Positions 9,846 to 17,466 are shown, numbered from the stretch's first letter. The stretch: DNA of 64,000 nt from an uncultured Gemmatimonadales bacterium (GCA_963821525.1 CAWGED010000010.1:96001-160000); one strand, 5' to 3'. The notes: generated by a model from the letters alone, not told the origin. A program made the numbers and translations.

Positions 9846-10013
9846 TTACTCGTTCTCCGGGGTTTCCCGTCTCCGGTACAGCATGACGGCGATGCCGCTG
9901 GCGATGACGAATGCGGGCAGTATGAGAATGACCATACTACCCAGCACCGCGCTCATGAAGCGCGCCATGGCATCCACGCCGGAGACGCCGGCACACCACC
10001 ACTGCCAGGCCAT
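9846..10013 (-). CDS. small single-TM protein at end of cox operon
   Basis: Own translation: MAWQWWCAG...VILILPAFVIASGIAVMLYRRRETPENE; may start at 10059 across an indel. Confidence 0.5.
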   Translation of the reverse strand: MAWQWWCAGVSGVDAMARFMSAVLGSMVILILPAFVIASGIAVMLYRRRETPENE

Positions 10014-10055
10014 TGGCGTCCTATTGAGGACTTCGCCCGGAGGATGTCGATTGGC

Positions 10056-10369
10056 TCATGATGCCTGCGGGCTGAGCGTGACGAGGCGGAAGGCGTCGCG
10101 CCACAGATGGTTGAGCATGAGCAGTACGAAGACCAGGGTCGGGATCAGGGTCCAGAACAGGGCGGCTCGCTCGTACCTGAGGCCCATGAAGTACAGCAGG
10201 GCGATCGCCGCCTCGGTGACCGCGAGCGCGAGGAGGACGGCGAGCAGGGATCCCTCGGGAAGAGAGGCGTAGGTAACTGCAACCTCCAGCGCGACAATCA
10301 GGGCCAAGGCGAACCACACCGCCACGTAGGTTCGCATCCCGGGACCCGCTTTCCTTCCCTGTTAGCCAT
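10056..10369 (-). CDS. coxD: cytochrome c oxidase subunit IV
   Basis: YVAVWFALAL...LYFMGLRYE; ATG 10369 has an RBS but needs one indel, otherwise start is 10337. Confidence 0.8.
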
Positions 10370-10389
10370 GGCAGCCTCTCACGCAGACC

Positions 10390-11019
10390 TCAACGGGCGT
10401 TCATCAGGTAAACGAGAGGGAAGACGAACATCCACACCAGGTCGACGAAGTGCCAGTACAGTCCGGTGGTCTCGATGTGCCCGGCGGTGAGCCGGCCCCG
10501 CCCGAAGAGGCTGGCCACGACCGTCAGCGCGACCACGCCGCCGATCACGTGGAGCAGGTGCAGCCCGGTGATGCTGAAGAACGAGGCGCCGAACAGCACC
10601 GGACCTCCCACGGGATTGGTCGAGGGGCTCCACCCTTCGCCGAACATCTTGAACCATTCCCGGAGATGCAATGCGGCGAAGGCCGCTCCGAGGCAGGCGG
10701 TGCCAGCCATCCATTTCACCGTCGCGGCCCGCCGCCCGGCGTGCGCCGCGCCGACCGCGCCCAGCATGGTGAGGCTGCTGGTCAGCAGCACCAGGGTCAT
10801 GACGATGGCGTTGAGGATCGTCGGGACAGTGACGAAGGGCCGGGGCCAGTTCGGGCTCCCCGCCCGCAGGTAGCCGTAGCCGAAGAGGAGGGCGCCGAAG
10901 GTGGCGCCGTCCGCGATGATGAACAGCCACATGACCAGCTTCTTCGACTCGATGCCGAAGGGGGACTCCTCCAGCTCGGCCCCGTGGTGCATGGCCAGCG
11001 ACATCTCGGATTTGCTCAC
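10390..11019 (-). CDS. coxC: cytochrome c oxidase subunit III (copy 2)
   Basis: KLVMWLFI, FFSITGLHLLHV, GLYWHFVDLVW. Confidence 0.92.
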   Translation of the reverse strand: MSKSEMSLAMHHGAELEESPFGIESKKLVMWLFIIADGATFGALLFGYGYLRAGSPNWPRPFVTVPTILNAIVMTLVLLTSSLTMLGAVGAAHAGRRAATVKWMAGTACLGAAFAALHLREWFKMFGEGWSPSTNPVGGPVLFGASFFSITGLHLLHVIGGVVALTVVASLFGRGRLTAGHIETTGLYWHFVDLVWMFVFPLVYLMNAR

Positions 11020-11039
11020 ATCGACCTCCACCGGTCGCC

Positions 11040-11641
11040 TCAGAGCCGCAGGACCAGGATCGGCAGGAGATAGAGCCACAGCAGGTCCATGAAGTGCCAG
11101 TACAGCGCCGTCGCCCCCAGCGGCTGATCGGGGGGATCCCCGACCCTGCTGCGCCGGATCCGATGCAGCATGTATCCCAGCGCCACGATGCCACCCAGGA
11201 GATGCAGCGCGTGGAGCACCGTGAATACATAGAAGAACGAGCTAGGTCGGGCTGGTGGCCAGGTAGAGTCCCTGGCGTCACGAGGCTCCGCCAGGCCAGG
11301 ATTTGCCCCCCGAGGAACACCAGGCCCAGCGCGAGGGTGAGATCGAGCCACCCGAGGCCTTGGGGCCGGCCCAGGGCGGAAGCGCTGTCGCTTGCGGCCT
11401 CGAGCCAGCTCCACCGGACCCGCGACGTGCCCAGCCGAAGCGTGACGCTGCTGAGCAGCAGGACCAGCGTGTTCGCGTAGATCAGCGGGGGCAGCCGGAT
11501 ATGCTGCCAATCCGCCGCGGCTCCCTGTCGCATCACCATGGCGCTGGTATAGGCGGCGAAGGACATGGTGATGGCCGCGATGCCGACCCAGACGCCGGTG
11601 CGGGTCGGAGAGAGCGGACGGCGCATCCCGAGGGTGCTCAC
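11040..11641 (-). CDS. coxC: cytochrome c oxidase subunit III (copy 1, frameshifted)
   Basis: NTLVLLLSS, FFYVFTVLHALH, YWHFMDLLW spread over frames; GTGA overlap with coxA. Confidence 0.85.
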
Positions 11642-14285: not shown

Positions 14286-14328
14286 GACGCCCGCCTTCGG
14301 TGACTACGGTGACAGAGCGCGCCTCTGC

Positions 14329-15049
14329 TTAGTAGGGCGTCGCCTTGAGGACGAAGTTGGCGGTCGCCGACTCCGTTCCGGACAGGGTGACCTCCTGACT
14401 CTGGGTCCCGAACCGCTCGTGCCACGCGGTCACGGTGTATTTCCCCGGCGGCAGCCCCTTCAGGCTGAACGTGCCGTCGTTCCCGGTCACGGCGTAGTTC
14501 GAGGTGGCCAAGCACCACGAAATAGCCGTGCATCCACGGATGGACGTTGCACTTCACGGCGATGAACTCCGGCTTCTCGTAGGTCGCCTTGATCGTCGGG
14601 GAGCCCGGCGGTTGCGACTTGTTCCACTCGGGGTTGACCTTGGCGAGCGGATGGATGTTGTGGGACGTCTGGTCGTCGTTATAGATCTCCAGGGGCTGCG
14701 CCACCTGCAGCGCGGCGACGTGCGGGATGTACTCGCAGCCTTTCTGGTCGTAACGCACGGGCGTGGCGGGAGCCGGGGCAGGCTGATCCCCCGCCGAGAT
14801 ATAGACCACCGCCCATTGGACCGTGTTGCCCGGCCCGGTGACGGCGCTCTCGGTCATCACCGGGGTGGGGTGTTGGGCGGCGCAGGAGGGCTCCTTCGCC
14901 ATATCGATGGGCCGCATCTTGGGCGGCGTGCCGGTGAAGGTCACGGTGCCACTGATCGCGCCGGCGCTCCGCCCCGGTGCGCCAGCCGCGCCGGTAAGAG
15001 TCGTGGAGGCGGCGATCAGGCCGAGTGCAGCAAGGTGCTTGGTACGCAT
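14329..15049 (-). CDS. secreted cupredoxin / carboxypeptidase-regulatory-like domain protein (frameshift ~14510)
   Basis: Signal peptide; DQKGCEYIPHV, HNIH, CNVHPWM; C-terminal GTFSLKGLPPGKYTVTAWHE. Confidence 0.85.
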
Positions 15050-15084
15050 TGTGACATCGTCCTGCAAGAGGTGATGAAATCTCC

Positions 15085-15931
15085 CTACTGCCCCAGGGGC
15101 TGCCCGATGGGAGTCAACTCCTTGCCGTGCTCCGGCAGCCAGGCGTTCCACAGGGCCGCCTCGGGGGTGTCGAGCGGCTGCAGGGTGCGGAGGAAGTGCA
15201 CCAGGTCCCACGCGTCCTGCGGCTGGATGTTGTCGGCGAATGACGGCATCGGGGTCCCATCCAGGCCGGTCATGAAGATCCGGTAGAGATCCTCGTTGGT
15301 TTCCCCGCACTTGAACCGCGAGCCGCTGGTGAAGTTGTAAGGGCGAATCGGGTTGTCCTTGCTGTCGGTCAGGGTGGAGGCCGACGGGCCATCGCCGTGG
15401 CCGGCGGGGCCGTGGCACTTCCAGCATTCCATCTTCTGGAATAGCTCGCGCCCATGGAGAATGCTTTCCATGGTAGCCGGGGTCTCCGGCGGAATGGTGA
15501 TCGGGGTTCCGGGCGACTCGGTGGTCCAGCGGGGGGAGAACGTCTTGATGTAGGCCACCAGATCCACCCGGGTCTGCTTGGTCAGCGGTCGCCAGGACGG
15601 CATGTTGGTGGTGACGAACCCGCGGGTCACGGCGCGGTACAGGTCGTCGTCGGTCGGCAGCGTGCCCGTCGGCGTCGAACGGCACTTGAAGACGGCCGCG
15701 GTGAAGTCCCGCGGCTTGGGGTCGATCCACATCGCGTTCTCCCCGGCCCCGTCTCCGGCCGGCCCATGACAAACGATGCAGTAGCGACGGTAACTGCTTC
15801 TTGCCCGCCGCGGCGTTGCCGTGCACGCCGTCGATCTGGGTTTCCTGTGCCGCGAGCGATGCCGCCCCCGATGCCATCAGGAGCAGGCATAGGCCCGAGG
15901 TGAACGCCATCCATTCGATTCTGATCCTCAT
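15085..15931 (-). CDS. periplasmic diheme class I cytochrome c (frameshift ~15792)
   Basis: Signal peptide; CIVCH (upstream of the track ORF start) and CWKCH; distal NMP and PMP; AGGAGG RBS. Confidence 0.9.
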
Positions 15932-15945
15932 GGGAGGCCTCCTGC

Positions 15946-17466
15946 TCAGAAGTCGAAGTCGAGTGCGAAGAGCACGCTGGTGCTCCGCACGACGGTGTTG
16001 GTGGAGAGCGGGGGGATACCCACACCGTCGCCGCTCAGGGGGACAGTACCGGTGGTCTTGGTGATGGACACCTCGCCCAGGAACGCGAGGCCGGCACGGC
16101 TGAACATGATCGGGTACCAGCGGTACCCGAAGGTGAACGCGTCGACGTTGCCCAGGTCGCTCGGCGTTGCCGGATCTGCCTGTTGCTGCATCCGAACCAG
16201 CTCGCTCCGCTGCACGAACATGAACTGGGGATTGACGTAGTAGTGCAGCTCCAGGAGGTAACCATTCCATGATCGGATCCTGGGTACCCCCCGCCAGCAC
16301 CTGGTCGTCAGACCCATGCATGTAGAGCGGCAGCAACTCGAGGTTTCCCGAAGAAGAAGTCGCCCACCGCGCCGACCCGATAGAACGACTTGTTATCGGT
16401 GCCGGTGCCGGGCACCGGGTCCACGCCGCCGTTGACGGTCTCGAAACTCGTGGGCCGGTACCCGAGGTACCCGAAGACCCCGATGCGCTGGAGCCCGAGC
16501 TTGCCGACGTCGAAGGCCTGGCTGAGGGTGACCGAGCCATCGTAAGTCTTCCCCTGGGGCAGGCCTGGAGCGCCGTCGACCCCACTCAGGATCGCGACGC
16601 TCGCGCGACTGTAGCTGTTCGGTTGATGGCCCAGCCACTCCGACGCCGATCTGGTTGTCCCCCAGACCGAAGGTCGTCCCGTCTCCCACCGGCAGGAAGT
16701 GATAGCTCTGGTAGAACGAGCCGTTATTGGAGAGCGTGATGATGCGCTTCTCCGAGAGCATGTTGTCCAGCTCGAACTTGCCGATCTTGAGATTGGCCCA
16801 GGAGGACTTGAACAGATTGTCGAAGCGCACGAACGCCGCCTCGATCCCGACCCCTTCGCCATCCTCGAAGGTCGGCACGAACCCGAAGGTGATGTTCTTG
16901 TAGAGCGTACCCAGCATCAGCAGATCGGCGCCGGAGATGTCGAATCCCGCCTGGGTGATCGTCTTCGCTTCCGTGCCGCCGGCACCGTCATCCACCGGCT
17001 GATCGGTGGTCTCTTCCAGATGCCAGCCTGGCGTGGTACGGATCGCGACCGGCCAATACGATGGGTTGACCCAGATAGGCGAGTCGCGATCGTTGCCGAG
17101 CTGATAGCCCCGGTCCTTGAACGCCTGGCCGAACGCGTTCAGCTCGGGCCAGGCCGTGTGGCAGGCCGAGCAGGCGAGGTTGTACTTCCGGGCGAAGGCT
17201 GGAATCGCGGCCGCCGCATGGGAAGCCAGAGTGAATGCCGAGAGATGTGCGACGCTGGAAACCTCCGCCGCAACTCCGTTCCGAGCAGTGATGTAGGATT
17301 CGTAGTTCGGCCGGAGTGCACCGGCCGTTGCCCCGTCGAACCCGGGGGTGGGCGCAACCACGGTTGCCCAACCTCCCGAGGCTACCCCCAGGGCCAGACT
17401 ACCTGCGATCAGTACCGACCTGAACCAACCTTTCTCGCTCCCACGCTTTGTGCACGAGTGATTCAT
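15946..17466 (-). CDS. cyc2: Cyc2-like fused monoheme cytochrome-porin (about 3 frameshifts)
   Basis: IPAFARKYNLACSACHTAWPELNAFGQAFKDRGY matches the Cyc2 N-terminal signature; beta-rich body; C-terminal ALDFDF. Confidence 0.8.

Follow-up and report, generated by a model that had tools for sequence, protein, structure and literature searches.

Does a soil bacterium presumed to feed on organic matter encode an electron path from its outer membrane to O2, and are the genes for that path intact? The question is raised by nine co-oriented genes at 9846–17466 on the minus strand of the window, by which we mean the whole stretch of DNA analysed (64,000 nucleotides from an uncultured Gemmatimonadales bacterium).

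Gene row and frame breaks

Translated with frames joined, the row encodes a Cyc2-family porin, a dihaem cytochrome c, a cupredoxin, CoxB, CoxA, two CoxC-like proteins, CoxD and a 55-aa membrane protein. A preliminary description had placed here a porin, a cytochrome, a CNVHPWM protein and oxidase subunits II, I, III, III and IV, and each of these genes and motifs is found where it was said to be. The same description held that the genes had been recovered by joining frames, which is true of those for the porin, cytochrome, cupredoxin, CoxB, CoxA and CoxC1, but coxC2 and coxD are unbroken.

We count approximately 30 frame breaks across the 7.6 kb operon, nearly all of them single inserted bases in non-repetitive context. 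Comparison with the intact copy of a same-genus genome (G003, locus L014), which serves as our reference, reveals three inserted bases in the porin gene (at about 16642, 16353 and 16273), where two breaks had been described. The cytochrome and cupredoxin genes carry one inserted base each (about 15791 and 14513, respectively), coxB has indels at about 14074, 13754 and 13730, coxA has about twelve single-base indels, and coxC1 has an extra base at each of two sites, about 11277 and 11242. Were these frameshifts real, the genes would be pseudogenes in the source strain, a reading favoured by the sheer number of breaks within 7.6 kb and by 53 gap openings in 8.9 kb here compared with 3 in 2.1 kb of neighbouring DNA, both against G003. 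We nevertheless regard a dead operon as highly improbable. The inserted bases are absent from G003 and from a second same-genus genome, G001, both of which have intact copies, and they are missing in soil-metagenome contigs from four runs. Similar breaks are equally found in the operon flanks, in the other COX1 genes of the genome and in rpoB, which is split into three pieces, and the assembly itself consists of 19 contigs with an estimated completeness of only 81%. Read through, the operon has no in-frame stop over 2393 codons, and its codon differences are mostly synonymous (256 versus 110 non-synonymous). Errors of assembly almost certainly account for the frame breaks.

The porin and the Cyc2 family

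By motif, length and modelled barrel fold, the porin (15946–17466, minus strand) is a predicted member of the Cyc2 family. The available part of Keffer et al. 2021 describes AXPXFAR[Q/K][T/Y] upstream of CXXCH as a Cyc2-only motif, and further gives PXL four residues past CXXCH, a length of at least 365 residues and a 16-strand barrel for which OprO and OprP are the named templates (PMC8406198). In the porin, the corresponding haem segment (17140–17208, minus strand) contains AIPAFARKY, NLA, CSACH, TAW and PEL in that order. AIPAFARKY thus lies just upstream of CSACH, the one haem-c motif of a short N-terminal domain, and PEL follows CSACH-TAW. The protein ends in LDFDF (15949–15963), so that both the IPAFARKY-x3-CSACH motif and the terminal Phe first reported are present, and the rejoined length of ~505 aa agrees with the 505 codons of the intact same-genus copy. 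Residues P89, F91, C99, C102, H103 and P107 are invariant across 44 homologues, with L109 at least 90% conserved, and a whole-genome motif scan finds only two genes with such a motif.

An AlphaFold model of the porin (pLDDT 84, pTM 0.78) has 16 long strands by DSSP in residues 140–504, a range mostly above pLDDT 85, and a hydrophobic stretch near the N-terminus (model helix 14–32). Foldseek places OprP (2o4v_A) first, with E 1.5e-11, and OprO (4rjw, 4rjx) at ranks 5–6. A barrel with a haem domain had been expected; in the model, the haem segment lies at the N-terminus and the barrel has 16 strands. No matching Cyc2 model exists in Pfam or NCBIfam, as searched by profile with the operon proteins. 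The porin shares its single CxxCH with Cyc2PV-1 of Mariprofundus, Cyc2 of A. ferrooxidans, Cyt572 of Leptospirillum and Cyc2 of Ca. Mariimomonas, together with AxPxFAR[Q/K][T/Y], PxL, length, the predicted OprO/OprP-like barrel and the C-terminal Phe (DFDF here). Unlike these proteins, Gemmatimonadales porins have an extension of ~75 residues between the putative signal peptide and the haem motif, a feature of their clade for which the model's confidence is low. According to the available parts of two studies (PMC8406198, PMC13647500), Fe(II) is oxidised in vitro or in E. coli by Cyc2 proteins from three clusters; one of the two cautions that the function of divergent homologues is uncertain, notably in Cluster 3 (Keffer et al., PMC8406198).

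Oxidase

The downstream genes encode a predicted A-type haem-copper cytochrome c oxidase, with subunits I, II, III and IV and the CuA and CuB/haem ligand motifs. These are coxB (subunit II, 13481–14285), coxA (subunit I, 11640–13460, end approximate; 604 codons in G003), coxC1 (11040–11626, 195 codons), coxC2 (10390–11019, 209 aa) and coxD (prokaryotic subunit IV, 10056–10337, 93 aa), all on the minus strand. In the intact G003 copy, COX2, COX1 (E 7e-132), COX3 (twice) and COX4_pro all score above their Pfam cut-offs, which bears out the five subunits of the initial reading. Subunit I has GHPEVY and WGHHMF, and subunit II has the CuA motif C-x3-C-x3-H-x2-M (CTQLCGLGHYNM, 13553–13588); a Pfam/NCBIfam profile search found no fused cytochrome domain in CoxB. 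Other haem-copper oxidase loci of the genome lie on contigs C8, C5 and C18. The genome's other CoxA genes are only 44% and 28% identical to that of the operon, indicating that the operon oxidase is a separate paralogue.

Electron carriers and the rus operon

Two predicted periplasmic carriers are encoded between porin and oxidase. The dihaem cytochrome c (15085–15931, minus strand, 281 codons) was described as a signal-peptide protein with CIVCH and CWKCH; both motifs are found (15766–15780 and 15412–15426, minus strand), within two Pfam Cytochrom_C stretches (E 4e-19). Its best PDB relative is 6h5l_B (E 7e-54), and cytochrome c4 is absent from its seven PDB sequence matches at E ≤ 0.01, on which ground we reject it as an orthologue of Cyc1 (cytochrome c4). 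The second carrier (14329–15049, minus strand, 239 codons) has a cupredoxin domain inside a CarboxypepD_reg (transthyretin-like) domain. Its predicted copper ligands lie in SHNIHP (14648–14665) and CNVHPWM (14531–14551), the H...CNVHPWM pattern noticed at the outset, and H130, N131, C167, H170, P171 and M173 do not vary across 20 homologues. The fold (model pLDDT 82.5) and the His, Cys, His, Met set point to a predicted type-1 copper site. Foldseek relates the model to plastocyanin 1bxu (TM 0.80, rmsd 1.9) and also to amicyanin, pseudoazurin and CuA domains; AcoP (7z3f_B) appears at rank 42 with TM 0.41, a fold-level likeness on which we reject AcoP orthology. There is no sequence match to any PDB cupredoxin chain at E ≤ 1, and the 50 best fold matches of this protein, the operon's one cupredoxin, do not include rusticyanin. 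With respect to Cyc1, AcoP and rusticyanin, both carriers count as analogues and not as orthologues.

The rus operon of A. ferrooxidans runs cyc2-cyc1-cup/acoP-coxB-coxA-coxC-coxD-rus (PMC10654088), and the preliminary description had assigned the present row the same functional order. This stands for cyc2, the dihaem cytochrome, the copper protein and coxBACD: both systems place an outer-membrane (here predicted) Cyc2-family porin, a dihaem cytochrome c, a copper protein and an A-type oxidase on one strand. It does not extend to rusticyanin, whose gene the Gemmatimonadales row lacks, or to the carriers, which are not orthologous, the cytochrome here not being cytochrome c4-like in its PDB matches (E ≤ 0.01) and the cupredoxin sitting within a CarboxypepD_reg domain and resembling AcoP by fold alone. 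In further contrast to the rus operon, subunit III is encoded twice, a 55-aa membrane protein follows coxD, neither ctaA nor ctaB is nearby, and the host is a neutral-soil member of Gemmatimonadales in which RuBisCO was not found. The likeness is one of functional order only.

Distribution

The operon is conserved across two phyla. We compared 80 named loci from Gemmatimonadales, Acidobacteriota and one Eisenbacteria, and a synteny check in relatives bears the row out: cyc2, dihaem cytochrome, cupredoxin, coxB and coxA follow one another on one strand in 68 of them, and the cytochrome gene adjoins cyc2 on the same strand in 79. In ten of the 80 loci, the cyc2-cytochrome(-cupredoxin) front end occurs with no oxidase within 9 kb, suggesting that the front end can serve other partners. 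The same gene order recurs in four other genera of Gemmatimonadales, the order to which the nearest named homologues belong, in keeping with the Gemmatimonadota-like host proposed earlier. Flanking genes differ among the 10 loci checked, which indicates that the row is both mobile and retained as one block.

Soil Acidobacteriota carriers (Terriglobia, Ca. Acidiferrales and Ca. Acidoferrum) have the same gene content and order, but the source genome belongs to another phylum; identity to the G003 proteins is 44–57% for Cyc2 and 64–78% for CoxA. In a FastTree phylogeny, the proteins from Gemmatimonadota group as a single clade (support 98) with Acidobacteriota clades around it, and the operon-type clade is set off from outgroup paralogues by a long branch of 1.15 changes per column. 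Within Gemmatimonadota as sampled, the operon is confined to two families of one order, where 18 of 102 genomes carry it; in ten other families it is missing from all 48 genomes. Cyc2 homologues in Gemmatimonadota are already known from FeGenie-based surveys; our literature search found no published description of the nine-gene operon.

Proposed function and alternatives

We consider it rather probable that the operon encodes a chain that would take up electrons at the outer membrane and carry them to O2, the probable donor being Fe(II). In this scheme, the Cyc2-family haem-porin would accept electrons one at a time from a donor in solution, most probably Fe(II), and hand them to the blue-copper protein of the periplasm and the dihaem cytochrome c, from which they would reach the CuA site of the dedicated A-type oxidase and so O2. 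We infer inward electron flow because the terminal member of the chain is an O2 reductase with a subunit II that has no cytochrome domain of its own; the donor and the order of the two carriers are likewise as we infer them. By this means, a bacterium presumed to live on organic matter can probably tap extracellular dissolved iron for electrons. The RuBisCO large subunit was not found in the 81% complete genome, which speaks against classic lithoautotrophy. The chain may yield energy, or may merely keep Fe(II) oxidation outside the cell.

Of the other readings, the one to which we give most weight, while still thinking it rather unlikely, retains the same wire from outer membrane to oxidase but puts in place of Fe(II) some other soluble donor of single electrons that is common in soil, such as Mn(II), Cu(I) or reduced humic quinones. 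Sequence leaves the donor unfixed, the branch of 1.15 changes per column parts the clade from outgroup paralogues, and the lineages that carry the operon are soil heterotrophs, not known iron oxidisers. A preprint on Candidatus Manganitrophaceae, the available part of which mentions Cyc2 15 times in the context of manganese oxidation, reportedly proposes a link between the two. However, all Cyc2 members tested were assayed with Fe(II) and oxidised it, and the available parts of the same two studies demonstrate no other donor for the family (PMC8406198, PMC13647500).

An ordinary oxidase operon fed by quinol through the cytochrome and cupredoxin, with the porin as a passenger (in a non-respiratory role such as protective surface Fe(II) oxidation, metal uptake or sensing), is less probable still. 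The row contains no bc1 or ACIII genes, leaving the carriers free to be fed from elsewhere, and ten loci are without the oxidase; yet the porin gene heads the row and, in two phyla and amid changing flanks, 68 of 80 loci keep it together with the oxidase, and haem-copper oxidases are already encoded on contigs C8, C5 and C18. We think it very unlikely indeed that electrons instead leave under anoxia, through the porin-cytochrome, for an acceptor outside the cell, be it Fe(III) or another. Although Cyc2-type annotations cannot separate iron oxidation from reduction, as the available part of a marine Gemmatimonadota survey has it (PMC11316326), the O2-reducing A-type oxidase is the row's only membrane complex, and neither a quinol dehydrogenase nor a multihaem chain is encoded in it.

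Returning to inward uptake from Fe(II), a wider proposal is a serious possibility, although we lean slightly against it: that Gemmatimonadales and Terriglobia-type Acidobacteriota, which rank among the most abundant 'heterotrophic' soil groups, share a self-contained nine-gene cassette passed between phyla and respire O2 with dissolved Fe(II) or a similar donor from outside the cell at neutral pH. If true, ordinary oxic soils would hold a large, unrecognised biological iron-oxidation sink, and these bacteria an energy supplement.

A small membrane protein at the end of the row

Beyond coxD lies only the gene for the 55-aa single-helix membrane protein (9846–10013, minus strand), followed by a gene on the opposite strand. 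Of about 100 loci searched by tblastn (E<1e-3), 26 have it immediately following coxD in the same orientation, and the protein probably serves the oxidase as a small subunit or assembly factor.

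Results

A Cyc2-led oxidase operon with broken reading frames

We identify a minus-strand operon of nine genes encoding a putative porin-cytochrome of the Cyc2 family of fused outer-membrane proteins (15946-17466, 505 codons), a dihaem cytochrome c (15085-15931, 281 codons), a copper protein of the cupredoxin type (14329-15049, 239 codons), coxB (13481-14285), coxA (about 11640-13460), two COX3-like genes (coxC1, 11040-11626; coxC2, 10390-11019), coxD (10056-10337) and a gene for a 55-aa single-helix protein (9846-10013). In stop-to-stop translation of the minus strand at 9700-17700, protein-like pieces switch frame repeatedly; gene limits were set by placing on the window the proteins of genome G003, a same-genus relative whose copy is intact. 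The motifs quoted in the preliminary description all lie where expected. Pfam searches of the intact copy return two Cytochrom_C domains, COX2, COX1 (E 7e-132), two COX3 domains, COX4_pro and, at the C terminus of the copper protein, a CarboxypepD_reg stretch. An Rfam search of 9500-18200 gave no matches, and promoter- and terminator-like sites are no commoner than chance.

The frame breaks could mark a dead operon, a reading the preliminary description had allowed for, or they could be assembly errors. The genes are uninterrupted in two same-genus genomes, throughout the operon in G003 and as far as the contig end in G001. Alignment of the window with G003 opens 53 gaps over 8.9 kb. Most mark a single base that is extra in the window and lies outside repeats; the gaps extend into the flanks and include three inserted bases in the porin gene. 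The same bases (for example 15787, 13754, 13730, 12970, 12792, 12764, 12741, 12595, 11031 and 11021) are missing from contigs of four soil-metagenome runs from four studies, which are 92-99% alike. When inserted bases are read through, the eight larger genes contain no in-frame stop in 2393 codons, and their codon differences from G003 number 256 synonymous and 110 non-synonymous. The pattern reaches beyond the operon: in the window's genome (4.33 Mb, 19 contigs, estimated completeness only 81%), rpoB (C5:491819-496246) lies in three pieces and the COX1 genes on contigs C8 and C18 in two each. Judged by the relatives, the soil contigs, rpoB and the codon substitutions, the frame breaks in the window are almost certainly assembly errors, with a slight chance of real decay. 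Because indel errors span the whole genome, any gene call in the window may be truncated.

Assignment of the porin to the Cyc2 family

Keffer et al. 2021 (PMC8406198) define Cyc2 by a single CXXCH, no fewer than 365 residues and a 16-strand porin modelled on OprO/OprP, with AXPXFAR[Q/K][T/Y], called unique to Cyc2, just upstream of CXXCH and PXL four residues downstream. The window porin reads AIPAFARKY-NLA-CSACH-TAW-PEL. An alignment of 44 porin homologues, with identity down to 26%, shows no variation at P89, F91, C99, C102, H103 or P107, and DF[DA]F as the C-terminal sequence. An AlphaFold2 model from this alignment (pLDDT 84, pTM 0.78) has 16 long strands at residues 140-504, preceded by a short helical haem segment; the preliminary description had anticipated a barrel. 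Foldseek puts OprP (E 1.5e-11) at the top and OprO at ranks five and six, with other 16-strand porins alongside. With the published motif present in the window and in the 44 homologues, motif and predicted fold identify the window porin as a Cyc2-family protein, as had been proposed.

Residues 1-87 are modelled poorly; an extension of ~75 residues ahead of the motif is found in close Gemmatimonadales porins and is absent from more distant homologues. The family comprises 2215 representative clusters at E<=1e-3, of which 118 remain at E<=1e-30, and its named members are each a 'hypothetical protein' of Gemmatimonadales or Gemmatimonadota. No Pfam or NCBIfam family scores above threshold for the porin, the matches to BBP2 (E 0.036) and Porin_O_P (E 0.18) both being sub-threshold. 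In the Protein Atlas, the nearest clusters are unnamed, and the nearest Pfam-bearing cluster, with Porin_O_P in 20% of its members, is a lead only.

The two candidate carriers

The dihaem cytochrome matches 6h5l chain B in the PDB (E 7e-54), titled 'conserved hypothetical cytochrome protein', which we take to be the dihaem redox partner of Kuenenia HAO; cytochrome c4 is not among its seven PDB matches. A preprint gives 6H5L as a Kuenenia HAO structure. Membership of NCBIfam 'cytochrome579' was rejected, the score of 53 bits falling short of the cut-off, 280.

No solved cupredoxin matches the copper protein in sequence. Residues H130, N131, C167, H170, P171 and M173 do not vary among 20 homologues, and in fold searches its model (pLDDT 82.5) resembles amicyanin, plastocyanin (1bxu, TM 0.80), pseudoazurin and CuA domains, with AcoP of Acidithiobacillus ferrooxidans a weak match at rank 42. 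Relatives are labelled 'plastocyanin' by JGI and 'carboxypeptidase regulatory-like domain-containing protein' by NCBI.

The pairing of Cyc2 with a cupredoxin recurs beyond the oxidase operon. Locus L022 (G038:C29, 2113-4981) carries a distant porin-cytochrome paralogue (25% identity) with cupredoxin-CarboxypepD_reg genes on both sides and no oxidase, and genome G007 has an additional cupredoxin copy upstream of its operon (L019, 11284-12081).

Conservation and distribution of the operon

The gene order is kept in relatives, where the preliminary description had suggested looking for it: all eight larger genes occur in identical order in four other genera of Gemmatimonadales. Of 599 candidate stretches picked up by scanning species-representative genomes, 564 were confirmed, and synteny counts rest on the best 80 of these 564. 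Taxonomically the 80 are Gemmatimonadales and many Acidobacteriota (Terriglobia, Ca. Acidiferrales, Ca. Acidoferrum), with one Eisenbacteria genome and one Bacillota-labelled MAG. The series cyc2, dihaem cytochrome, cupredoxin, coxB, coxA lies on a single strand in 68 of them; ten have the front end without an oxidase within 9 kb, and two are too short to judge. The dihaem cytochrome gene follows cyc2 in 79 of the 80, and the 55-aa gene stands behind coxD in 26 of about 100 loci. The ten oxidase-less loci (L047, L055, L057, L060, L073, L081, L088, L096, L099 and L103), searched 9 kb downstream or, in L088, only the 4 kb to the contig end, all have cyc2 and the dihaem cytochrome gene, five with the cupredoxin gene too; either they are remnants, or their front end serves other partners. 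Four of the 79, the Acidobacteriota loci L061, L064, L069 and L100, carry an insert of ~2.6 kb between cyc2 and the dihaem cytochrome gene, at about 10300-13000 in each.

Flanking genes differ among the window and ten related loci examined: no neighbour is conserved there, and haem A synthase, regulator and carbon-fixation genes are absent. Beside the row, a two-component system occurs in two of the ten and an FeoB fragment in one. In two Acidobacteriota loci, L052 (6293-8446) and L065 (16855-19071), an OmpR-type response regulator and a HAMP histidine kinase directly adjoin the operon, on its upstream side in one locus and its downstream side in the second; this pair may regulate it.

Within Gemmatimonadota, a porin orthologue (E<=1e-60) is present in 19 of 151 sampled genomes, all in two families of one order (15 of 71 and 3 of 31, plus the window's genome), and absent from the 48 genomes sampled in ten further families. 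A FastTree tree built on 89 proteins unites operon-linked Cyc2 in one clade, within which Gemmatimonadota are one clade (support 98) among Acidobacteriota clades; this topology, weak in rooting and method, is suggestive of a single transfer between the phyla. Bacillota bacterium MAG294 (L029) has the complete operon at 69-84% identity (coxC1 and coxD, 56-58%), and its Cyc2 groups within the Gemmatimonadales clade. Probably either the contig was misbinned or the MAG was wrongly labelled.

Discussion

Cyc2 is a marker gene for microbial iron oxidation and, to our knowledge, its validation has so far been confined to dedicated iron oxidisers. Here it leads an operon that is complete and strongly conserved and that brings its own carriers and oxidase, in soil lineages held to be organotrophs. 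If the operon works as predicted, biological iron oxidisers in aerated soils would be far more numerous than assumed, and soil Cyc2 counts of the FeGenie kind would carry physiological meaning. With a single porin, a pair of carriers and a single oxidase, the operon is also a compact and testable setting in which to trace how electrons cross the periplasm from Cyc2, a question posed by the model iron oxidisers too.

Because the window CoxB has no fused cytochrome domain, the oxidase needs a soluble donor, for which the operon encodes two candidates, the cupredoxin and the dihaem cytochrome. Its sole outer-membrane component is the Cyc2-family porin, and tested members of this family oxidise dissolved Fe(II), according to PMC8406198 and PMC13647500; two of the family, Cyc2PV-1 and Ca. 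Mariimomonas Cyc2, have been expressed in E. coli. Taken together, the need for a soluble donor, the two carriers and the Fe(II)-oxidising family make a path from Fe(II) to O2 the simplest and most likely reading, in which donor, order of the carriers and physiological benefit are all our inference. Electrons would pass from Fe(II) outside the cell to the Cyc2 haem, from there to the cupredoxin and/or the dihaem cytochrome, and on through CuA to O2. PMC11316326 notes that Cyc2 annotation cannot tell the direction of electron flow. Since the genome has other oxidases (CoxA 44% and 28% identical to the operon CoxA) and RuBisCO was not found in it at 81% completeness, use of Fe(II) through the operon would be supplementary, lithoheterotrophic or protective, and not autotrophy.

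The gene order matches that of the rus operon, the iron-oxidation operon of A. ferrooxidans (order in PMC10654088), but common descent is limited to Cyc2 and the oxidase class, and rusticyanin is missing. The likeness in functional order that was first proposed stands. Cyc2 homologues in Gemmatimonadota are known from FeGenie surveys that give no operon analysis; the loci compared here place the operon in Gemmatimonadota as a second phylum beside Acidobacteriota. Our search of the freely accessible literature found no paper describing the operon, and the main text of the Ca. Acidoferrum paper does not mention Cyc2.

Other genes in the genome and window

A second Cyc2-motif gene lies outside the window on contig C5 of the same genome (about 860800-861050; L020). 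It reads PSFARQTGLACSACH followed by a PxG-type continuation, also passes into out-of-frame sequence, and is distantly related to the operon porin (E 1.5e-7 across the haem segment). Within the window, a full-length member of the 56-kDa selenium-binding protein family (SBP56, E 4.5e-181; 24373-25857, plus strand) adjoins genes for an ECF sigma factor and an 886-aa Ser/Thr kinase with TPR repeats (23734-24336 and 21101-23758, both minus strand). At 3675-4130 on the plus strand, a divergent 4Fe-4S mono-cluster domain (Fer4_19) and a CDGSH iron-binding zinc finger share a single reading frame.
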